From Candidatus Woesearchaeota archaeon (lineage in GTDB: Archaea > Nanobdellota > Nanobdellia > SCGC-AAA011-G17 > UBA489): a stretch of DNA of 42,492 nucleotides. Below the pieces are notes generated by a model. That model was not told where the DNA came from, did no database searches, and saw only the letters and a list, made by a program, of their open reading frames with translations. The DNA lies in the NCBI GenBank assembly GCA_018658955.1, contig JABIPM010000012.1:1-42492 (forward strand). Reading direction: 5' to 3'. Positions within the stretch are counted from its first letter, which is position 1. Each line of letters starts with the position of its first letter. This document shows, one piece after another, positions 12,322-42,458 of the stretch. The position numbers and the translations under genes are program-made.

Positions 12322-13812
12322 ATGAAAAAATTGAATGAGGTGATAGAATCTCTCCACCCATTAGAAAGAAGTGTTCTTAAACATTTAACCAATAATTTAA
12401 CAGCAACAGAATTAGCTTCGCTAGCAAATTTAAAGGAAGTAGAAGTTATGCGTGCATTACAATGGTTGGAACAAAAAGGTGTTCTTGAACTTAATCAAAC
12501 TAAAACAGAAACAATCGAAATTGGTGAAAATGGTAAAAATTATTTAGAAAATGGTTTTCCTGAAAAAAGATTTCTAAAATCAATAACAGCTAAACCTCAA
12601 CCGATGAATAAAATAAAAGATCTAGCATGTTTAGATAATAATGAATTTTCAATTTCATTAGGATTACTAAAAAGAAATAATTGTATCAAATTAGGAAAAG
12701 AAGCAGAAATAACTAAAGATGGGTTAAACCTACTAAAAGATAAAACACAAGAAGACTTTCTTAAACAATTACCAAAATCTTTAGATAATCTAACAAAAGA
12801 ACAAATAGGAATAGAAATAGAATTATCAAAAAGAAAAGACATAATCAAAACAGAAACAAGAAAAATATTCACATTAAAACTTTTAAAATTCGGAAAAGAA
12901 ATTTTAAATTCTAAAATAAATTTAGATTTAATTGACACTTTAACTCCAGAAATAATCAAAACAGGCACATGGAAAAATAAAAAATTCAGAAGATATACAA
13001 TAGATGCTTCTGTAGGTGAAACTTATGCTGCAAAGAGGCACATGGTTGCCCAGGCAAGAAATTACATCAGACAAGTTTGGTTAGATATGGGTTTTAAAGA
13101 AATGTCTGGACCCATGGTTGAGTCATCATTCTGGAATTTTGATGCATTATTCACTCCTCAAGATCACCCAGCGAGAGAAATGCAAGACACTTTCTTCATA
13201 GAAGGTTCAAAAAAATCACCAGATAAGAAATTATTATCACAAATAAAAAAACAACATGAAACTAAATGGAATTACAAGTGGGAAGAAAAACCCTCAAAGG
13301 AATTAGTTCTAAGAACACATACAACATCAACAACAGCAAGAACATTAGCAAACTTAAAAGAATCAGATTTTCCTGCTAAATTCTTCTCAGTTAACAGAGT
13401 GTTTAGAAATGAAGCATTAGATTGGTCTCATTTATTTGAATTAAATCAAGTAGAAGGAATTGTAGTTGATCCAAATGCAACATTTCAAGATTTAATTGGA
13501 TATCTTAAACAATATTATAGTAAATTAGGTTATGACAAAATAAGAATCAGACCAGCTTATTTCCCTTATGTGGAACCAGGATTAGAAATTGATGCTTTCC
13601 ATCCAAAGAAAAAGAAATGGGTTGAGTTAGGTGGTGCAGGAATTTTAAGACCAGAAGTAGTAATTCCATTGCTAGGAAAAGACATTCCAGTTTTAGCATG
13701 GGGTCAAGGATTAGAAAGAGGAATATCAGAATATTATACCATAACAGATATTAGAGAATTATACAAAAATGATCTTAAACAATTAAGAAACTCAAAGGTA
13801 TGGTTGAAATAA
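12322..13812 (+). CDS. pheS: phenylalanine--tRNA ligase alpha subunit (archaeal/eukaryotic type)
   Basis: N-terminal winged-helix repeats. Class II motifs FDALFTPQDHPAREMQDTF, LRTHTTS, RVFRNE, YFPYVEPG, ELGGAGILRPEV. Confidence 0.93.
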   Translation: MKKLNEVIESLHPLERSVLKHLTNNLTATELASLANLKEVEVMRALQWLEQKGVLELNQTKTETIEIGENGKNYLENGFPEKRFLKSITAKPQPMNKIKDLACLDNNEFSISLGLLKRNNCIKLGKEAEITKDGLNLLKDKTQEDFLKQLPKSLDNLTKEQIGIEIELSKRKDIIKTETRKIFTLKLLKFGKEILNSKINLDLIDTLTPEIIKTGTWKNKKFRRYTIDASVGETYAAKRHMVAQARNYIRQVWLDMGFKEMSGPMVESSFWNFDALFTPQDHPAREMQDTFFIEGSKKSPDKKLLSQIKKQHETKWNYKWEEKPSKELVLRTHTTSTTARTLANLKESDFPAKFFSVNRVFRNEALDWSHLFELNQVEGIVVDPNATFQDLIGYLKQYYSKLGYDKIRIRPAYFPYVEPGLEIDAFHPKKKKWVELGGAGILRPEVVIPLLGKDIPVLAWGQGLERGISEYYTITDIRELYKNDLKQLRNSKVWLK

Positions 13813-31669: not shown

Positions 31670-33724
31670 ATGTGTGGAATAACTGGAGCAATAAACCTAG
31701 AAAATCACAAAGAAATAGCTAGCAACGCATTAAATAAAATTCTTTATAGAGGAATAGATAATAAAAAAATACATTCAGAAAATAATTTTACTTTTGCACA
31801 TTGTTTACATTCTATTGTGGGAAACAAACCACAACCACTAATAAAAGGAAATTTCATTTTTGGTTCTAATTGTGAAATCTACAATTGGAAAGAACTAAAA
31901 GAAAAATACAACTTAAATTCAGAAAATGATGCAGAATTATTATTTGATTTACTAATTAAAAAACTAAACAAGCCAGAAGAACTAAACTCAATTCTAAAAG
32001 AAGTAAGTGGAGTATTTGCTTTCTTCTTACATAATAAAAAAGAAAATTACACAATACTGGCAAGAGACCTATTAGGAGAAAAACCATTATGGTTTTACAA
32101 TAAAGATTCCTTAATATTTGCATCAGAAAGAAAGGCAATAGCTTCAAAGGAAATAGAACCAGAAGAACTAAATCCTAGAAAAATATTATTATTTAATCAC
32201 AAAACAAACAAATTAACATTCTTACATCAAGATTTCTTCAAAATAGAACCAGAAAAGTTAAACAAAGAAAACCTAAAACGATTAATAAAATCTTCAATTT
32301 TACAAAGAGTTCCAAACAAACACCTAGGAATACTGTTCTCAGGAGGTTTAGACTCAACACTATTAGCACATATCTTAACAAATAACAATATTCCATTCAC
32401 TGCATATATGACCGTCTCAGAAACAAAAACAAAAGAAATAGAAAACGCAGAAAAGATTGCAAAAGAACTAAACTTCAAATTAAAGTTAGTAAAAACAAAC
32501 AAAGAACAGATTATCAAAGAATTACCAAAAATAGTTAATTTAATTGAAACTGCAGACCCAGTTAAAGTGGAAGTAGCAACCACACTATATTTTTCTCTAC
32601 AGGCAGCCCAAAAAGACAACATTAAAGTAATTTTCTCAGGGGTTGGTGCAGACGATATTTTTGGGGGTTACAAAAGAATGCATCAATCTCAAAACATAAC
32701 CTTAGATTCATTATCTAACCTAAGAAGGATTTATGAAAGAGATCTTTACAGAGATGATGTTCTTTCAATGGCACACAACATAGAACTCAGATTACCGTAC
32801 TTAGACAAAAAATTAGTTCAAGCTTGTCTTAATACTCCGGATGAACATAAAGTCTCTGAAACTCCAAAGAAATTAATGAGAGAACTATCTCGAGAATTAG
32901 GATTATCAAAAGAACTATCTCAACTAAAAAGAAATGCTGCACAATACAGTAGTGGAATAGGAAAAGTAATTTCAAAAATTGTAAAAGAAAAGGGCCAATA
33001 CAAGGCAGAATACTTTTCAAACATTCTAAAAAGGAAAAATATCAAACTAGGTGCATTATTTTCTTCTGGTAAGGACAGCGTATACGCATTACATATCCAA
33101 CATAGACTAAATTATGAAGTTTCCTGTTTGATCACTATAGACAGTCAAAACAAAGACTCATTCATGTTTCACACGCCAACAATAGAATTGGCAGAAACAC
33201 AGGCAGAATGTTTAGATATTCCAATCATTCTACAAAAAACAAAGGGGGAAGAAGAAAAAGAACTAACAGATTTAGAAGTAGCACTAACAAGAGCAAAGGA
33301 AAAATATCAAATACAGGGAATAATTACTGGTGCAATTTTTTCAAACTATCAAAGAACAAGGATTGAAGAAATCTGTGACAAACTAAATCTAAAATGTTAC
33401 TCCCCATTATGGCACATGGATCAAGAAACTGAAATGAAAAACTTAATTCAAAAGGATTACAAATTTATCATGACTAAGGTTGCTGCAGAAGGATTAGATA
33501 AATCATTCCTAAATAAAATTGTAACACAAACAGAATTAGACAAGTTAGTTAAATTAAATAAAAAATTACATATTAATGTTGCAGGAGAAGGAGGGGAATT
33601 TGAAACTCTAGTTTTGGATGCACCATTGTTCAAATCAAAATTAAAGATAGAAGAATCAGAAATTATTGAAGAAAAAGATGGTTCTGCAACATTAATCATA
33701 AAGAAAATTTCAAAACAAGAATAA
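31670..33724 (+). CDS. fusion protein: class II glutamine amidotransferase + asparagine-synthetase-like PP-loop domain + Dph6-type (MJ0570/DUF71) diphthine-ammonia ligase domain
   Basis: N-terminal MCGI (Ntn Cys), SNCEIYNW, DAELL. AsnB synthetase motifs GILFSGGLDS and FSGVGADDIFGGY. From about aa 455 (nt about 33031), GALFSSGKDSVYAL, GAIFSNYQRTRIEEIC, SPLWHMDQ and AGEGGEFETLVLDAPLF match the Dph6 N-terminal domain. Confidence 0.8.
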   Translation: MCGITGAINLENHKEIASNALNKILYRGIDNKKIHSENNFTFAHCLHSIVGNKPQPLIKGNFIFGSNCEIYNWKELKEKYNLNSENDAELLFDLLIKKLNKPEELNSILKEVSGVFAFFLHNKKENYTILARDLLGEKPLWFYNKDSLIFASERKAIASKEIEPEELNPRKILLFNHKTNKLTFLHQDFFKIEPEKLNKENLKRLIKSSILQRVPNKHLGILFSGGLDSTLLAHILTNNNIPFTAYMTVSETKTKEIENAEKIAKELNFKLKLVKTNKEQIIKELPKIVNLIETADPVKVEVATTLYFSLQAAQKDNIKVIFSGVGADDIFGGYKRMHQSQNITLDSLSNLRRIYERDLYRDDVLSMAHNIELRLPYLDKKLVQACLNTPDEHKVSETPKKLMRELSRELGLSKELSQLKRNAAQYSSGIGKVISKIVKEKGQYKAEYFSNILKRKNIKLGALFSSGKDSVYALHIQHRLNYEVSCLITIDSQNKDSFMFHTPTIELAETQAECLDIPIILQKTKGEEEKELTDLEVALTRAKEKYQIQGIITGAIFSNYQRTRIEEICDKLNLKCYSPLWHMDQETEMKNLIQKDYKFIMTKVAAEGLDKSFLNKIVTQTELDKLVKLNKKLHINVAGEGGEFETLVLDAPLFKSKLKIEESEIIEEKDGSATLIIKKISKQE

Positions 33725-35799: not shown

Positions 35800-36078
35800 A
35801 TGAACTTAGATATTACCAAAATGGGAGAAAGAGGGCAAATAGTTATTCCTCAAGAAATTAGAGAAAAATTAAAGCTCAAACAAGGAGAAAAATTTTTAAT
35901 TATTAATGATGGAGAAGATATAATTTTTAGACCTTCAAATAAAATAAAATCATTAAAACAATTAGAAGAAGATATAATAGATATGCAAATAGCAAGTAAA
36001 CGGTGGAAAGAAATAGAAGAAGGTAAATTCTCTAAATCAAAAGAAAAAGAATTCTTGAAAGAACTAAAGAATTGGTAA
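35800..36078 (+). CDS. AbrB/SpoVT/MazE-family antitoxin
   Basis: Swapped-hairpin motif MGERGQIVIPQEIREKLKLKQGEKFLI. It lies directly upstream of a RelE/ParE-like ORF. Confidence 0.8.
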   Translation: MNLDITKMGERGQIVIPQEIREKLKLKQGEKFLIINDGEDIIFRPSNKIKSLKQLEEDIIDMQIASKRWKEIEEGKFSKSKEKEFLKELKNW

Positions 36079-36082
36079 AATA

Positions 36083-36340
36083 ATGGAAATAATTCAAACC
36101 AATTCCTTCAAAAAATCAATTAAAAGATATAAAAAAGATAAATTGTTAATTAAAAGATTAAAAAATCAAATTAAAAAAATAATTAAAAATCCTGAAATTG
36201 GAGATTTCTTAAAAAATAATAAAAAAGGAGAAAGAAAACTATACGTTCCACCATTTAGACTATTATATTCTTTAAATTCAAATAAAAATACTATCTATCT
36301 TTTAGATTTTGATAATAGGGACAAAATATATAGAAAGTAA
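36083..36340 (+). CDS. RelE/ParE-family toxin
   Basis: 85 aa. F.K..K.....L..R....I..I..NPEIGDFLK, FRLLYSL....IYLLDFDNRDKIYR matches the RelE/ParE consensus. 4-nt spacer after the antitoxin. Confidence 0.7.
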   Translation: MEIIQTNSFKKSIKRYKKDKLLIKRLKNQIKKIIKNPEIGDFLKNNKKGERKLYVPPFRLLYSLNSNKNTIYLLDFDNRDKIYRK

Positions 36341-36722: not shown

Positions 36723-37580
36723 TTATAATTTAATCCTTTTTTTATGAATGGATAAATATCTTCTAAAATAATAATTAACAAAATGTTCTTCATCTTGGGT
36801 AAATGCCTTGTAATAAGATGCTCTTTTTTTATATTCAATTATCAGCATAGGATAACCTGCATGCCACAATAGATGATTCATTAATAATCTTCCAATTCTA
36901 CCATTTCCATCCCCAAATGGATGAATGATTTCAAATCTATAATGTGCTCTCGCAGATAATTCAACAGGATTCATTTGTTTATTTTTATCAATAAATTTTA
37001 CAAATTCATTCATACGCCCCATTACCTCTTGCCAATCGGGAGCAACGTAAGGGCCAATACGGACCAGATAGTCTCTAAATTTCCCGGCAACATCTTCTTT
37101 AGTAAATTTAAAAACATCTTCATGCCATCTCAATAATAATTTCTTTGTTAATTTTTCTTTTTTCTTTAATAATTTTAAAAAAACTTTATTATGCTCCTCT
37201 GTTTCTTTAATTTCATTTAATTCTTTATTTGGAGCAATTCTATTATGAACTATTTCTCTTGTTTCTTCGAGAGTGATTGTTGATCCTTCAATAGCATTGG
37301 TGTTATATGTAAATGCTATCGCAATTTCTTCAAGTTCCTTTTCCTTCATACTTTTTGGAAGTTTTTCCCACTCTTGTTGAAATTGAGATTTAATAGATTC
37401 TAATTTTTGATATAACTGTCGATTACATTCTTTTTTGAATTTAGATTTTATAACTTCAATATCATCAGGAATAATTTTTCCTAGATATTTCTCTCTTGTA
37501 ATTGATTTACCCCCTTCCCTATATGAATGCTGTAAATAAAAATATTCTTTATTTCCCTTTTTTCTTGTTATAATTCTCAC
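36723..37580 (-). CDS. Fic-domain protein (putative AMPylase) with N-terminal inhibitory motif
   Basis: Canonical Fic motif HPFGDGNGRIGR. The upstream TNAIEG matches the (S/T)xxxE(G/N) autoinhibitory helix. Confidence 0.9.
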   Translation of the reverse strand: MRIITRKKGNKEYFYLQHSYREGGKSITREKYLGKIIPDDIEVIKSKFKKECNRQLYQKLESIKSQFQQEWEKLPKSMKEKELEEIAIAFTYNTNAIEGSTITLEETREIVHNRIAPNKELNEIKETEEHNKVFLKLLKKKEKLTKKLLLRWHEDVFKFTKEDVAGKFRDYLVRIGPYVAPDWQEVMGRMNEFVKFIDKNKQMNPVELSARAHYRFEIIHPFGDGNGRIGRLLMNHLLWHAGYPMLIIEYKKRASYYKAFTQDEEHFVNYYFRRYLSIHKKRIKL

Positions 37581-37643: not shown

Positions 37644-37726
37644 CGCCACGACCCGGATTTGAACCGGGATGTCCAGAAGGACCTGGATTAGCAGTCCAGT
37701 GCAATACCAAATTATGCGATCGTGGC
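37644..37726 (-). tRNA. tRNA-Ser (anticodon GCU), 83 nt, no encoded CCA
   Basis: Hand-folded. Acceptor GCCACGA/UCGUGGC, anticodon arm CUGGA-CUGCUAA-UCCAG, long variable arm GUCC-UUCU-GGAC, T arm CCCGG-UUCAAAU-CCGGG, discriminator G. Confidence 0.9.
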
Positions 37727-37770
37727 TTAATCATTTTCTTATAATCCTAATTTATAAGCGTTATCAAAAA

Positions 37771-37852
37771 CGCCGCGAGTAGGATTTGAACCTACATATC
37801 CGAAGAAATCGGTTTTCGAGACCGACGCAATACCAAATTATGCGATCGCGGC
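37771..37852 (-). tRNA. tRNA-Ser (anticodon CGA), 82 nt, no encoded CCA
   Basis: Hand-folded. Acceptor GCCGCGA/UCGCGGC, anticodon arm UCGGU-CUCGAAA-ACCGA, long variable arm, T arm GUAGG-UUCAAAU-CCUAC. The 5' 26 nt are nearly identical to the neighbouring tRNA-Ser. Confidence 0.9.
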
Positions 37853-37932
37853 ACAATGTTTCATTCAATTGATAATTAATAAACCTAACCAAATATTTAA
37901 ATATCATTTATAACCTCTATTTAAACAATAAA

Positions 37933-38730
37933 ATGCCCCATTCTGAACTACAAAAAGCCTATGAAAGGATAAATAACTTAGAAAAAACTATTAACAACCC
38001 CTCACAGACCCAAGAAATTAGAGATTTGAGACAAACATTAAAAGAAATAGAACTAAAATTAAACACAGACGAAAAAACAGGAATTCTTTCAAAAACAGGT
38101 TTAGAAAAATTATTAACAACAACGACAAATTCTCAATGGCCTAGCGGAATAATTTACATAGATATGATGGGATTAAAAGAAATTAATGATAAATACGGCC
38201 ATAATGTTGGAGATATTCAAATTAATCAAGTGGCTTATGGGTTAAAACATGTCTTACGTTCGAGTAAAGAAGCACATGGAAATGAAAGAAGAATGGCAGA
38301 AAAAGAAAATATTGGAAGTCCAGATTTAATTTTTGATTTAAGATCTCAAAATTCAGATGTGGGAAGAATGTATTCTGGAGGAGATGAATTCATAGGTGTC
38401 CTACAAAACATAGAAGGATATAATGGTTTAAGGACAGCAATGGAAAGATTATCGGAACATTTTAATTCAGAAGATTTACCTGCAATATCAATTGGTGGAA
38501 CAGTTCACGCTCCAAATAGTTCAATTGAAGATTCGATAAGGTTAGCAGAAGAAGCAATGTATGAATCTAAAAACGCACTAAAAACAAGAAGAGATAATTT
38601 TAGCTTAGAATCATATGACACAGGATATGCAATAAATTATCCAAATATAGGCATAAACATTTACTTACCTAAAACAGATTTCTTAACACCAATTAAGGCA
38701 GAAATAGCAAAACTAAAAAAAGTTAATTAA
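37933..38730 (+). CDS. GGDEF-domain protein (putative diguanylate cyclase) with N-terminal coiled-coil
   Basis: It aligns with PleD-type GGDEF: DEKTGILSKTGL, IIYIDMMGLKEINDKYGHNVGD, SGGDEFIGVL (GGDEF codons 38377-38391), ISIGGTV, LAEEAMYESKN. There is an insertion of about 30 aa before the GGDEF hairpin. Confidence 0.85.
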   Translation: MPHSELQKAYERINNLEKTINNPSQTQEIRDLRQTLKEIELKLNTDEKTGILSKTGLEKLLTTTTNSQWPSGIIYIDMMGLKEINDKYGHNVGDIQINQVAYGLKHVLRSSKEAHGNERRMAEKENIGSPDLIFDLRSQNSDVGRMYSGGDEFIGVLQNIEGYNGLRTAMERLSEHFNSEDLPAISIGGTVHAPNSSIEDSIRLAEEAMYESKNALKTRRDNFSLESYDTGYAINYPNIGINIYLPKTDFLTPIKAEIAKLKKVN

Positions 38731-38766: not shown

Positions 38767-40458
38767 TTGGTGGTCAAAGTAACAGAAAAACGACTAATAA
38801 CAGCGGCATTGCCTTATGTAAACAACATCCCTCATTTGGGACACATAGTTGGATCTCACCTACCAGGTGATATTTTTGCAAGATTCTGTAGACTAAAAGG
38901 ATATGATACATTATACATCGGAGGAACAGATGAACATGGAACTCCAGCATTACTAGAGGCGAAAAAACAAAAAATCCCATTAGACAAATTCTGTACAACA
39001 ATTTACAAAGAACATAAAAAAATATATGATTGGTTCAATATTTCGTACGATAATTTTTCAAGAACTTCAAAACCAATCCATCATGAATTAACTCAGGAAT
39101 TTTTTCAAAAAATAAAAGATAATGGTTACATCAAAGAAGCGAAAATAAAGCAATTCTACTGCGAACAAGATAAAATATTCTTACCAGATAGATTCGTAGA
39201 AGGTACATGTAAAAGTTGCGGATATGAGCACGCAAGAGGTGATCAGTGTGAAAAATGTACAAAGATATTAGACACCTTAACATTAATCAACGCAAAATGT
39301 ACTCTTTGTTCAAACACTCCAGAAATCAAAGAGTCAAACCATCTTTTCTTAAAATATGATAAACTATCAAGTAAACTAGAAACTTGGTTGAAAAAACAAA
39401 CTCATTGGAGACCTCAAGTATTAAACCTAGCATTAGCATGGGTAAAAGAAGGTATAAAAGAAAGAGGAATAACAAGAGATATTGAAAATGGGGTTAAGGT
39501 GCCCTTAGAAGGTTTTGAAGATAAGGTATTTTATGTATGGTTTGATGCACCAATCGGATATATTTCATCAACTAAAGAACATACAAAAAATTGGGAATCC
39601 TATTGGAAAGAAGATTCTAAGATTTATCATTTCATTGGAAAAGACAACATTCCTTTCCATTCAATATTCTGGCCATCATCTCTAATTGCAAATGGAGAAT
39701 ATAACTTACCTTACAACGTAGTAGGGCTTCAATATCTAAATTACGAAGGTGGAAAATTTTCAAAAACACATAAGAGAGGAGTTTTCTGTGAAAACATTCC
39801 TAAAACAGGAATAAATCCGGATGTTCTAAGAGCATATCTAACCTTCGTAATTCCTGAAACAGATGATACTGAATTCAAATGGTCTGAATTTGAATCAAGA
39901 GTCAATTCAGATTTAATTGGAAATTTTGGAAATTTCATTAATAGAACATTAACATTCGCACATTCAAAATTAAATGGGGAAATTACTCAACCTAAAGATT
40001 TAGAAGAATATTCAGAATTCAATCAACAAGTTTTAGAAAAAATAAACAAAGTCGAAGAGTTATTAGAAAAAGCAGAATTAAGACATGCTTTCCAAGAGAT
40101 ATTATCTCTATCAGATTTAGGAAATAAATTCTTTAATGATCAAGAACCATGGGTGGTTCTAAAACAAGATGAAAATAAAGCAAGAGAAATTCTTTACATC
40201 TGTTCAGATTTATGTAGGAAATTAGCAATTCTTTCATCACCATACATCCCTCAAAGTTCAGAAAAAATATTTAACATATTAAACTTAAAAGAAAATCCCA
40301 CCAAACAAGCAATTTGGGAAACATCAAAAGAAATCAAAATACCAAAAAAACATAAAATAAACAAGCCAGAAGTTCTTTTTGAAAAATTAACACCAGAATT
40401 CGTAGAAGAATTCAAGAAAACCGTTGCTGAAACAAGCGACTTAAAAGACTTATTCTAG
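38767..40458 (+). CDS. metG: methionine--tRNA ligase (no C-terminal tRNA-binding appendix)
   Basis: HIGH-type PHLGHIVG, zinc knuckles CKSCGYEHARGDQCEKC and CTLC, WFDAPIGY, KMSKS-type KFSKT. Non-ATG start (TTG/GTG). Confidence 0.93.
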   Translation: MVVKVTEKRLITAALPYVNNIPHLGHIVGSHLPGDIFARFCRLKGYDTLYIGGTDEHGTPALLEAKKQKIPLDKFCTTIYKEHKKIYDWFNISYDNFSRTSKPIHHELTQEFFQKIKDNGYIKEAKIKQFYCEQDKIFLPDRFVEGTCKSCGYEHARGDQCEKCTKILDTLTLINAKCTLCSNTPEIKESNHLFLKYDKLSSKLETWLKKQTHWRPQVLNLALAWVKEGIKERGITRDIENGVKVPLEGFEDKVFYVWFDAPIGYISSTKEHTKNWESYWKEDSKIYHFIGKDNIPFHSIFWPSSLIANGEYNLPYNVVGLQYLNYEGGKFSKTHKRGVFCENIPKTGINPDVLRAYLTFVIPETDDTEFKWSEFESRVNSDLIGNFGNFINRTLTFAHSKLNGEITQPKDLEEYSEFNQQVLEKINKVEELLEKAELRHAFQEILSLSDLGNKFFNDQEPWVVLKQDENKAREILYICSDLCRKLAILSSPYIPQSSEKIFNILNLKENPTKQAIWETSKEIKIPKKHKINKPEVLFEKLTPEFVEEFKKTVAETSDLKDLF

Positions 40459-40497: not shown

Positions 40498-40602
40498 AGC
40501 GAGGTAGGACAGAATAAGTGTCAAACCAGAGCTTATGTCCAATTAGGAGTGTCCGTCGGGCTCATAACCCGGAGGTCGCTGGTTCAAATCCAGCCCTCGC
40601 TA
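40498..40602 (+). tRNA. initiator-type tRNA-Met (CAU) with a 30-nt insertion/intron in the D-loop (105 nt precursor, 75 nt mature)
   Basis: Hand-folded. A1:U72 acceptor AGCGAGG/CCUCGCU+A. Anticodon arm UCGGG-CUCAUAA-CCCGG with three G:C pairs next to the loop. T arm GCUGG-UUCAAAU-CCAGC. The D stem GGAC...GUCC only closes a normal 10-nt loop (AAUUAGGAGU) if about 40511-40540 is removed. Confidence 0.8.
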
Positions 40603-41480
40603 TTAGGACCTCCACCCCTCGCAATTAAAGGCTTAATCGCCTTTTCTATTCCTTTTTTAAATTCATCGAATGAAAACACCACTATCTCCTCATCAAGATA
40701 ATTAGAGTATTTTTCCTTTAGAATTTCAGTAGTCACAACAATAAAATCAGCTGAAAGATTTAGAGACTTATAAAACTTAAATTTCTTATTTAACTTATTG
40801 CTTTTTTCTTCAGGTTTATCCCAATAAGTTGTTTCAATAAAAAAACATCTTTCAAAAAATTCACAAAAAAAATCGCAACTAAAATACCCATTACCTTTAC
40901 CAGTAATAAATCTTTTCTCGTATTCATAATTTATATTTAATTTTTTTAGAACGCCTGCAACCTCAAGCTCTAAACCATTATACATTTTTTCTCCAAGTGG
41001 ACCAATCACCATTTTACCCATATTTTTAATCCCTCTCAAAGAACCTCTTCTCCGTTTATCTAAATTTTTTGGATCCCAAAACCCCTTTTGATTATTAAAT
41101 GTGGATAAACCTCCTTTTCTACAATTAGTTAACCAATTCTGTTTAAATTCAGCATTATTATTCAATAACGTTCTAACTTTTTTACGTGCAAGTTTAGAAG
41201 CATTTTTAGCTTTTAATTTCCATTGTATTGAATATGAATCATCTTTAGCCATTTTGGATCTAACAGAATTGCTGATTGTTTTACCCAGCTTAACATAATC
41301 TAAATTCTTATTAGTCTTAATTGCAGCATTACTTTGAGCGATTCTCTTTAGTTTAGTACTTCCTAATTCATCCCTCAAATAATCTAAAACTTCCTTTTTG
41401 CTAACATTGTATTTTGAAGCAATATCTGTGCTATTCAAACGATTTTCTAAAAATTCCCTCAAAACAACCTCTTTTTCCAT
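40584..41480 (-). CDS. HTH protein with basic middle region and C-terminal PD-(D/E)xK-like (restriction-endonuclease-fold) module; possible homing/mobile nuclease
   Basis: N-terminal HTH-like STDIASKYNVSKKEVLDYL. C-terminal LELEVAGVLKKLNINYEYEKRF...YFSCDFF...CFFIETTYW resembles the E...D...E(x)K nuclease core (weak). The last 6 codons plus the stop overlap the tRNA 3' end by 19 nt. Confidence 0.5.
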   Translation of the reverse strand: MEKEVVLREFLENRLNSTDIASKYNVSKKEVLDYLRDELGSTKLKRIAQSNAAIKTNKNLDYVKLGKTISNSVRSKMAKDDSYSIQWKLKAKNASKLARKKVRTLLNNNAEFKQNWLTNCRKGGLSTFNNQKGFWDPKNLDKRRRGSLRGIKNMGKMVIGPLGEKMYNGLELEVAGVLKKLNINYEYEKRFITGKGNGYFSCDFFCEFFERCFFIETTYWDKPEEKSNKLNKKFKFYKSLNLSADFIVVTTEILKEKYSNYLDEEIVVFSFDEFKKGIEKAIKPLIARGGGPNSEGWI

Positions 41481-41546: not shown

Positions 41547-42458
41547 ATGGAATTCCCGAAGCTCAAAAACAAACTAATACTGGCTCCAATGGCAGAAGTC
41601 ACTTCACTACCTTTTAGGCTCTTATGTAGGAACTATGGTGCTTCTATGACCTATACTGAACAACTTTCAGCCTTAGCAATAACAAGAGATTCTGCAAAAA
41701 CATTAGATATGGCTGAAACTAATTCAACTGATTCTCCAGTAGGATTACAACTATTTGGAAGAAATCCAGATATATTACTAAAGGCAGCTAAAAAATTATA
41801 CAAGCCATTTGATGTAATTGATATTAATATGGGGTGCCCTTCTAAAAAAATAGTAAAAGAAGGCTACGGGTCTGCATTACTAAAAGAAAAAGATAGAATA
41901 AAAAAAATAATATCTATTTTATCTAAAAACATTCCAAGACCAATCACTGTAAAAATGAGATCAGGATTCAAAAAAGTAGAAGCATTAGAATTAATTGAAA
42001 TAATGGAAAATGCTGGTTGTTCTGCAATTACTATTCACGCAAGAACTCAAGAACAAGGTTATTCTGGAAAATCTGATTGGGAGTTAATTAGAAAAGTAAA
42101 AGAAAAATCATCCATACCAATTATTGGAAATGGGGATGTAGTTGATCCAATTTCAGCCAAACAAATACTAAAACAAACAAAATGTGATTATATCATGATT
42201 GGACGTGCTGCAAGAAATAATCCTTGGATTTTCAAACAAATTAATACATATTTTAAAACCGGAAAAATTATTGAACAAACTTTTAAAGAAAAATTAAATT
42301 TATTTCAAACATACTTAAATCAAGGAGAAACCAACTTCAAGTTATTAAGAATGAGGGCATTAGACTTTACCAAAGGCTTACCAGATTCTCATAATTTAAG
42401 AAATACTCTTTCTAGAGCAAAAAATATTCAAGAAATTAATTCTATATTAAAAAAATAA
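41547..42458 (+). CDS. dus: tRNA-dihydrouridine synthase
   Basis: LAPMAEVTSLPFRLLC, DINMGCP (catalytic Cys), VKMRSG, TIHARTQEQGYSG, GNGDV, IGRAA. Confidence 0.9.
   Translation: MEFPKLKNKLILAPMAEVTSLPFRLLCRNYGASMTYTEQLSALAITRDSAKTLDMAETNSTDSPVGLQLFGRNPDILLKAAKKLYKPFDVIDINMGCPSKKIVKEGYGSALLKEKDRIKKIISILSKNIPRPITVKMRSGFKKVEALELIEIMENAGCSAITIHARTQEQGYSGKSDWELIRKVKEKSSIPIIGNGDVVDPISAKQILKQTKCDYIMIGRAARNNPWIFKQINTYFKTGKIIEQTFKEKLNLFQTYLNQGETNFKLLRMRALDFTKGLPDSHNLRNTLSRAKNIQEINSILKK

Follow-up and report, generated by a model that had tools for sequence, protein, structure and literature searches.

The GGDEF gene and its product

The stretch analysed here, which we call the window, is the whole 42,492-nucleotide (nt) contig JABIPM010000012.1 of the Candidatus Woesearchaeota archaeon assembly GCA_018658955.1. 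Near its right end lies a gene encoding a protein of 265 amino acids (aa) with a GGDEF domain, the domain of the diguanylate cyclases that make cyclic di-GMP (c-di-GMP). An earlier reading, made from the letters and translations alone (the sequence-only reading), had described the product as an apparently active diguanylate cyclase in an archaeal genomic context and had proposed its horizontal acquisition into an accessory spot. The gene and the segments of its product discussed below are:

37896..37903, + strand: possible archaeal TATA box, TTTAAATA, about 30 nt upstream of the ATG (read by eye)
37933..38730, + strand: GGDEF-domain gene, 265 aa, ATG start (open reading frame list, Pfam, NCBIfam, AlphaFold, Foldseek)
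37999..38064, + strand: stalk helix, residues 23-44, leading straight into the GGDEF domain (predicted, pLDDT about 90)
38161..38214, + strand: IDMMGLKEINDKYGHNVGD, containing D77 (metal), K82, and N85 and D94 (guanine recognition), assigned from the DosC and PleD alignments
38263..38355, + strand: lineage-specific insertion, residues ~111-141, a gap in the DosC and PleD alignments
38377..38391, + strand: GGDEF active-site motif G149-F153, with the invariant R145 before it (read from the sequence)
38614..38727, + strand: family-specific tail, consisting of β-hairpin 231-244 (TGYAINYPNIGINIYLP; pLDDT 87-96) and helix 251-263

The strand opposite to the gene contains no rival open reading frame (ORF) of 40 aa or more. 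The hidden Markov model search proposed in the sequence-only reading was run, and Pfam assigned the protein to the GGDEF family (PF00990, E=7.4e-18, 65.3 bits versus a gathering cut-off of 23.8). The match is split into two stretches (residues ~44-111 and ~141-220) because of the insertion within the domain. NCBIfam model TIGR00254 also scored above its cut-off (52.7 bits versus 37.4). When the single sequence was compared with the PDB, every match was a GGDEF-domain protein, with Escherichia coli DosC at the top (1.4e-07). DosC was also the top match of a profile built from 10 family members (E=2.5e-16), and all 44 matches of this profile (44/44) were GGDEF-domain proteins, nearly all of them named diguanylate cyclases. 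This similarity is far beyond chance. A relation to the Cas10/Cmr2 palm domain (PF22335, 16.3 bits, below the threshold of 27) was rejected as generic distant palm homology.

The protein consists of a short helix (residues 2-18), the stalk helix (23-44), the GGDEF domain (~46-223) and a C-terminal tail (228-265). The GGDEF domain of DosC (4zve-4zvh) is its best sequence match among solved structures, with 24-25% identity. DosC is a globin-coupled sensor, whereas the window protein has no sensor domain. In these respects, as in those described in the following two sections, the features that the sequence-only reading had reported for the ORF, starting with its length and its complete GGDEF domain, were confirmed in all particulars.

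A/T-rich blocks resembling a TATA box, again recognized by eye, are present at comparable distances upstream of the gene in orthologous loci. If TTTAAATA is the TATA box, the mRNA of the GGDEF gene would possibly be leaderless or near-leaderless.

Catalytic and substrate-binding residues

In the alignment with the DosC domain all catalytic motifs line up, and BLASTP comparison with the PleD domain gave the same residue register. D77, located in YIDMMG, aligns with the first Asp of the 'DVD'/'DID' motif ('DVD' in DosC), and N85 and D94 lie in INDKYGHNVGD. We take the PleD equivalents to be D327 for D77 (metal), N335 for N85 and D344 for D94 (guanine), and K442 for K213.

Conservation was assessed in an alignment of 12 members of the family to which the protein belongs (28-83% identity). 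D46, T49, D77, N85, G89, H90, G93 and D94 in the first part of the domain, and R145, G150, D151, E152, F153, G188 and K213 in the second part, are invariant. The active-site residues are invariant or nearly so also among 67 short GGDEF proteins. Since the invariant set covers the metal, base and phosphate ligands, the protein looks catalytically intact. Of the metal, guanine and GGDEF positions singled out by the sequence-only reading, D77, N85, D94 and G150-F153 are kept in all 12 proteins, with no loss of a catalytic residue.

Several positions around the active site deviate from the canonical pattern. K217, the equivalent of PleD R446, is K, R or H in the family, and the next basic residues are at 219-220. 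The 'NRR' that canonically follows DxLTG is replaced by SK(T/K)G (SKTG in the window protein), and in the closer subclade the active-site hairpin is longer by two residues (R-M-Y-S-GGDEF). P0016 (L022, 2423-3205; 30% identity), the syntenic orthologue that has diverged most, is encoded directly upstream of MetRS, the methionyl-tRNA synthetase gene; its motif reads KGDEF, and its insertion is longer. Judged from these residues, P0016 may be drifting towards loss of activity.

Hypr GGDEFs, which make cyclic GMP-AMP (cGAMP), reportedly carry Ser at the position of PleD D344, as described by Hallberg in 2016. The Hypr protein GacA of Geobacter (6d9m) has the same fold as the window protein, but its signature Ser is not present in this family, where D94 is invariant in all 12 members. 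An Asp that never varies at this position speaks against a cGAMP synthase of the Hypr type.

Predicted structure

A first AlphaFold run with a 10-sequence alignment (mean predicted local distance difference test, pLDDT, 61) was too poor for the hairpin and the tail, and was superseded by a run with a 67-sequence alignment (pLDDT 87.4, predicted template-modelling score 0.82). The model has helix 2-18, stalk helix 23-44, the GGDEF core, helix 198-223, β-hairpin 231-244 and helix 251-263. In a Foldseek search of the PDB the best 50 matches were all GGDEF-domain structures, nearly all diguanylate cyclases, with a probability of 1.00. They included SadC, WspR, DgcZ, DgcB, PleD, DosC and SiaD. TM-scores, normalised to the isolated GGDEF domains, were up to 0.78-0.80; the GGDEF domain of SadC superposed on the model with a TM-score of 0.78 and a root-mean-square deviation of 2.2. 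With the residues intact and the fold that of diguanylate cyclases, the description 'apparently active' still fits the protein, as a prediction from residues and model.

The hydrophobic residues of the stalk helix (I29, L32, L36, I39, L43) have the 3-4 heptad spacing of coiled coils, and Foldseek overlays this helix on the stalks of SadC, GCN4-WspR, DgcB and SiaD. The stalk is presumed, from the model, to be a parallel coiled-coil dimerisation element. The N-terminal coiled-coil noticed in the sequence-only reading corresponds to the predicted helices 2-18 and 23-44, with the heptad pattern residing in the second. In fold and in the architecture of a helix running into the GGDEF domain the protein resembles bacterial stalk cyclases such as the cytoplasmic part of Pseudomonas aeruginosa SadC (4wxo/4wxw), SiaD (7e6g), Caulobacter crescentus DgcB (6ttr) and the stalk-GGDEF protein WspR (3i5c), with which it also shares the metal, guanine and phosphate residues and the intact GGDEF motif.

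It differs from these enzymes by its archaeal host, by three regions of the sequence and by the lack of an I-site. An insertion of about 30 aa before the active-site hairpin, noticed already in the sequence-only reading, was borne out by the alignments: residues ~112-140 have no counterpart in DosC or in PleD. Residues 112-132 have pLDDT values below 50, and the insertion is predicted to be disordered and charged. It keeps a [DE]RR motif (E118 R119 R120), E125 and D131, and occupies the position where the loop with the RxxD I-site is usually found. Unlike in the I-site-regulated cyclases of the PleD/WspR/DgcA type, whose RxxD lies five residues before GGDEF, no R/D pair is present at positions -9 to -6 relative to GGDEF in any of the 12 family members, so that the absence of an RxxD I-site, reported earlier for the 265-aa protein, extends to the whole family alignment. 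The second region is the SK(T/K)G turn, which stands in place of NRR. The third is the C-terminus, where a longer helix, a conserved β-hairpin and a terminal helix take the place of the canonical 'GRN + last strand'. The tail motif TG[YFL]A...[IF]xIYxP is kept even in syntenic orthologues of 28-30% identity (P0013, P0014, P0019, P0016). It is tempting to speculate that the insertion and the tail are lineage-specific regulatory or partner-binding elements.

Conservation of the locus and inheritance of the gene

The GGDEF gene is flanked by genes of tRNAs and of tRNA-related enzymes:

37644..37726, - strand: tRNA-Ser(GCT), conserved in the clade
37770..37853, - strand: tRNA-Ser(CGA), divergent from the GGDEF gene, conserved neighbour
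38767..40458, + strand: MetRS (Pfam), 36 nt downstream of the GGDEF gene, 73-96% identity in relatives
40498..40602, + strand: initiator tRNA-Met (tRNAi-Met) with a 30-nt D-loop insert (40513-40542), identified by blastn against uninterrupted copies
41547..42458, + strand: tRNA-dihydrouridine synthase (Dus), with which the conserved syntenic block ends

From end to end the contig is archaeal. Its products include the C-terminal part of a deoxyhypusine synthase, a Dph6 diphthamide synthase fused to an Asn-synthase-like domain and a Dph5-like methylase (Pfam), a phenylalanyl-tRNA synthetase of archaeal/eukaryotic type (alpha subunit of 496 aa, beta subunit of 536 aa with a B1 domain) and a proteasome-like subunit (Pfam). 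Among 185,579 species the only genome bearing a relative was 'MAG: Candidatus Woesearchaeota archaeon isolate BH21' (MAG, metagenome-assembled genome). The archaeal context claimed in the sequence-only reading was thus substantiated by the deoxyhypusine and diphthamide genes, the synthetase type, the interrupted initiator tRNA and the nearest genome. GC content is flat across the window (0.27-0.32), and the GGDEF gene does not differ from its neighbours (GC 0.307, GC at third codon positions 0.173, codon-usage distance 0.072).

The family is small. A protein-cluster search over 5.8 billion proteins returned only 10 clusters with 45-100% identity to the GGDEF protein. A profile search over 1.84 billion representatives yielded five proteins at E<=1e-30 and a handful more with a single full-length match; beyond the family the scores drop from 123 bits to about 100 or less and merge with those of generic GGDEFs. 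The members of the family group in a single clade in a neighbour-joining tree built from 67 short GGDEF proteins. The sequence-only reading had suggested a phylogeny as a means of locating the donor lineage: the tree established the unity of the family, but no donor was identified among ~159,000 GGDEF matches in a representative library that carries no taxonomy, where nothing lies between the family (>=96 bits, single stretch, syntenic) and generic GGDEFs. An ancient bacterial origin of the family is possible.

Every sufficiently long contig with a MetRS-linked orthologue has the same order of genes: tRNA-Ser(CGA) pointing away from the GGDEF gene, followed on the other side by GGDEF, MetRS, tRNAi-Met and Dus. 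This order is shared by at least six independent assemblies from different projects, and was seen in the NCBI MAGs JAERTB01 and CAZVVB01, a Logan assembly, TARA and other ENA marine assemblies and a JGI metagenome. Of the two possibilities that the sequence-only reading had wished to see checked, chimerism of the contig is excluded and bacterial contamination is contradicted, because independent assemblies share the locus. tRNA-Ser(CGA) occupies the same position in relatives L001, L003 and L010; in L017 and L022 a tRNA not typed by its anticodon lies ~830 nt and ~90 nt upstream of the GGDEF gene, respectively. In L016 a small ORF is inserted between GGDEF and MetRS. L017 (GCA_018655015.1) has the order GGDEF, tRNAi-Met, Dus, RNase HII ... 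SMC, which is the order of L003 and L004 minus MetRS.

The identity of the GGDEF proteins to the window protein declines alongside that of the neighbours, but faster. It is 83% in L001 (MetRS 96%, Dus 92%), 54% in L003 (MetRS 81%, Dus 80%), 51% in L010 (MetRS 85%), 30% in L022 (MetRS 73%) and 30% in L017 (Dus 74%, Dph6 69%). The ratio of non-synonymous to synonymous substitution rates (dN/dS), determined against the nearest orthologue, was 0.13 for GGDEF and 0.05 for MetRS, which shows that the GGDEF gene is under purifying selection. On account of its fixed locus in divergent relatives, its composition, the selection acting on it and the single clade formed by the family, we regard the gene as a vertically transmitted resident. 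The proposed horizontal acquisition into an accessory spot does not agree with a locus kept even at 30% GGDEF identity, with native GC content and codon use, or with a dN/dS of 0.13. The earlier interpretation was therefore partly supported: the gene does encode an active-looking cyclase in an archaeal context, but was not recently transferred.

A second branch of the family (P0009, P0010 and P0011; loci L025 1411-2145, L026, L027 and L013-L015) has a truncated C-terminal tail and is divergent from a gene for a TrmB-type regulator. In the P0011 contigs (L025-L027) these are followed by two small ORFs and the gene of a protein of 706 aa with CarboxypepD_reg repeats, and in the short P0009 contigs by other small ORFs. 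The second branch co-occurs in samples with the MetRS-linked form; in ERZ11848503 the coverages are 5.6x and 5.1x, and the GC contents of the two are 0.30 and 0.33, respectively. The shared samples and similar coverage make it plausible that there are two GGDEF paralogues per genome.

Search for signalling partners and defence functions

The search for partners of c-di-GMP signalling covered the window and ~80 kb from related loci, which together make up a small part of the genomes. Pfam found no EAL, HD-GYP, PilZ or MshEN domain among the about 41 ORFs of the window, as the sequence-only reading had noted for the first three, and none in the related loci (Pfam on 10 ORFs, precomputed Pfam annotations for the remaining called genes). 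Rfam detected no c-di-GMP-I or c-di-GMP-II riboswitch in the window and seven related loci, only tRNAs.

The sequence-only reading had also entertained, as speculation, a part in nucleotide-based defence or in the manipulation of a host. PADLOC gave no match for the GGDEF protein; among it and its neighbours only the Fic protein encoded upstream was matched. IMG/VR viral contigs contained no family member, only generic GGDEFs at 23-29% identity. There is no conserved effector gene beside the GGDEF gene in the related loci, and no secretion signal is evident in the protein by eye. These speculations gained no support, and in view of the missing PADLOC match the idea of a defence function was dropped.

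Proposed function and alternative explanations

The literature has been reserved about archaeal GGDEF proteins. Galperin et al. (2018; PMC5847659) were aware of only one archaeal GGDEF, that of Methanocella, and asked whether others might be contamination. Braun et al. (2021; PMC8646023) detected c-di-GMP in neither Haloferax nor Sulfolobus, and noted more than 300 uncurated BLAST matches in Asgard and DPANN MAGs. Of GGDEF proteins encoded on contigs assigned to archaea, Romling (2022; PMC10086821) wrote that they 'need to be confirmed'. According to a 2023 review (PMC10249747) c-di-GMP is undetected in archaea and diguanylate cyclases are almost exclusively bacterial. In metagenome surveys a few percent of archaeal MAGs carry such genes (PMC12781772). 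The earlier archaeal examples, Methanocella arvoryzae CAJ37382 and the REC protein with an inactive GGDEF domain of Ca. Micrarchaeum (PMC5847659), resemble the present one, as far as can be judged from their descriptions, in that the domain is encoded on DNA assigned to archaea. For these, contamination was left open (PMC5847659, PMC10086821), whereas here synteny shows archaeal residence and vertical descent. That DPANN archaea have GGDEF genes was already known in the form of database matches, and the family proteins already carry the JGI label 'GGDEF domain-containing protein'. What is new is the evidence for one family of this kind that truly belongs to archaea, is old and under selection and, to judge from its residues, is catalytically intact.

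We conclude, with a probability of about 0.6, that the gene encodes a native, vertically inherited, stand-alone putative diguanylate cyclase of a marine Woesearchaeota (DPANN) clade. Catalysis would follow the canonical mechanism, which is the best supported: two chains would pair through stalk helix 23-44, and each GGDEF domain would hold one Mg-GTP, with D77 and E152 binding the metal, N85 and D94 the guanine, and K213 and a basic residue at 217-219 the phosphates. The two GTP molecules would then be condensed to c-di-GMP. The RxxD I-site being absent family-wide, we do not expect classical inhibition of the enzyme by its product. Activity might be controlled through expression or, more speculatively, through the insertion, which has its [DE]RR motif where the I-site used to be, and the C-terminal β-hairpin.

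Several observations weigh against this conclusion. The window and the ~80 kb of related loci contain no c-di-GMP phosphodiesterase, PilZ protein or riboswitch, and no archaeon has so far been found to contain c-di-GMP (PMC10249747, PMC8646023). The GGDEF gene diverges far more quickly than the genes around it (51-54% identity where MetRS has 81-85%). In the active site the R446 position varies among K, R and H, another sequence stands in place of the conserved 'NRR' turn, two residues bulge from the hairpin in the closer subclade, and one distant orthologue reads KGDEF.

Some of these observations would fit a GGDEF domain that is dead or nearly dead and serves as a scaffold or nucleotide-binding sensor: the fast evolution, the non-canonical turn and R446 position, the KGDEF variant and the missing partners. 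We consider an inactive scaffold or receptor unlikely, because degenerate GGDEFs usually lose either the GGDEF motif or the metal and base residues, whereas the metal and base residues and G150-F153 are invariant here over 28-83% identity, and because the usual receptor role relies on the RxxD I-site that this family lacks. It is also improbable that the palm active site performs another reaction, such as the synthesis of a mixed or other cyclic dinucleotide or of linear pppGpG, or GMP transfer, for instance to an RNA 3'-OH. An RNA acceptor is suggested by the strict synteny with tRNA-Ser, MetRS, tRNAi-Met and Dus across the clade, and a deviating reaction would be consistent with the lack of c-di-GMP partners and with the family-specific additions near the active site (the insertion, the hairpin bulge and the C-terminal hairpin). 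Gene adjacency is, however, weak functional evidence in small streamlined genomes, the candidate second paralogue is unlinked to translation genes, and MetRS may have a TATA-like box of its own in the 36-nt spacer. Moreover, D94 is invariant, unlike the corresponding Ser of the cGAMP-making Hypr GGDEFs, and both guanine-recognition residues are kept, as expected for an enzyme using GTP as donor and acceptor.

The surroundings of the gene invite two further explanations. GGDEF domains are overwhelmingly bacterial (PMC5847659, PMC10249747), and the gene has Fic, MazE/ParE and homing-endonuclease-like ORFs only a few kb away, as one would expect of a recent bacterial transfer into an accessory island, or of a bacterial or chimeric piece of contig. 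We find this hardly credible, given the same position in at least six independent assemblies, a divergence that tracks that of the flanking housekeeping genes, native GC content and codon use, and a monophyletic family without a close bacterial relative. The nearby Fic protein, which matches SoFic and PDC-S04, and the toxin-antitoxin pair, together with the general knowledge that DPANN archaea are often episymbionts, could point to an antiviral-defence nucleotide cyclase or a tool of host manipulation. Such a role is very unlikely: the GGDEF protein has no PADLOC match, no conserved effector gene adjoins it, the Fic and toxin-antitoxin genes are not conserved neighbours, no family member was found on IMG/VR viral contigs, and by eye no secretion signal is evident.

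With a native diguanylate cyclase as the preferred reading, we tentatively suggest, at somewhat less than even odds, that c-di-GMP, or a closely similar dinucleotide derived from GTP, has long served the clade as a second messenger of its own. Its source would be a GGDEF family that lacks the I-site, is inherited vertically and may have been duplicated, and it would be sensed by effectors unlike the bacterial PilZ, EAL and riboswitch types. If so, no genuine c-di-GMP system would have been known from archaea before this one. Activity of the enzyme would imply that the missing phosphodiesterase and receptors are of new kinds. As an enzyme it is conventional, with modest subfamily-specific features; what lends it moderate interest is that archaea have never been found to contain c-di-GMP. 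For one lineage the question of contamination is answered by a gene that keeps a constant place among conserved housekeeping genes and has diverged along with its host genomes without losing a catalytic residue. The small (265 aa), soluble, sensor-less protein is a concrete candidate for assaying archaeal c-di-GMP synthesis.

Flanking genes and insertions

Of the neighbours that the sequence-only reading had called accessory, the Fic and MazE/ParE genes are indeed variable and lie farther upstream, whereas both tRNA-Ser genes are conserved. The stretch that varies among genomes extends from the proteasome-like gene to the tRNA-Ser genes; it contains Fic and MazE/ParE in the window and unrelated ORFs elsewhere. 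The Fic-domain protein (36723-37580, - strand) matches PADLOC SoFic and PDC-S04 with E-values of about 1e-30 to 1e-32. Its gene is adjoined by a pair encoding a MazE-type antitoxin and a ParE-type toxin (35800-36340, + strand), which recurs in L010 (MazE 100% identical over the first 69 residues, ParE 82%) amid different variable genes. The two tRNA-Ser genes are 43 nt apart in the window and 1.8-2.4 kb apart in L003 (7945-9927) and L010 (1056-3582), where the DNA between them encodes a 508-aa ORF without a Pfam match and, in L010, also a 183-aa ORF.

By eye, a TATA-like box possibly belonging to MetRS itself can be seen in the 36-nt spacer. The initiator identity of the tRNA-Met was recognized by eye from A1:U72 and the three G-C pairs of the anticodon stem (GGG/CCC). 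Its insert falls between tRNA positions 15 and 16; identical tRNAi-Met genes without the insert are present in L003 (12638-12713) and L017 (10836-10910). Rfam matched the gene only partially, and ARAGORN missed it because of the 30-nt insert in the D-loop. In L001 the tRNAi-Met gene is apparently broken elsewhere, as only positions 8-40 match contiguously. To judge from these sequences, the insert is possibly a non-canonical archaeal tRNA intron, polymorphic within the clade.

Between tRNAi-Met and Dus the window contains a 298-aa ORF (40584-41480, - strand) without a Pfam or PADLOC match. At the same position L001 has an unrelated LAGLIDADG_3 ORF (12641-13399, - strand), and in the distant relatives L018 (1993-2751, - strand) and L019 a LAGLIDADG_3 ORF is found directly upstream of the GGDEF gene. 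On its flanks, this tRNA-rich locus has the look of a hot spot where selfish elements insert.

The Dph6 fusion mentioned above is a 684-aa protein (31670-33724, + strand) combining a glutamine amidotransferase/asparagine-synthase-like part with Dph6, an unusual one-polypeptide arrangement for the last step of diphthamide synthesis. It is 69-91% identical in L001, L003 and L017.

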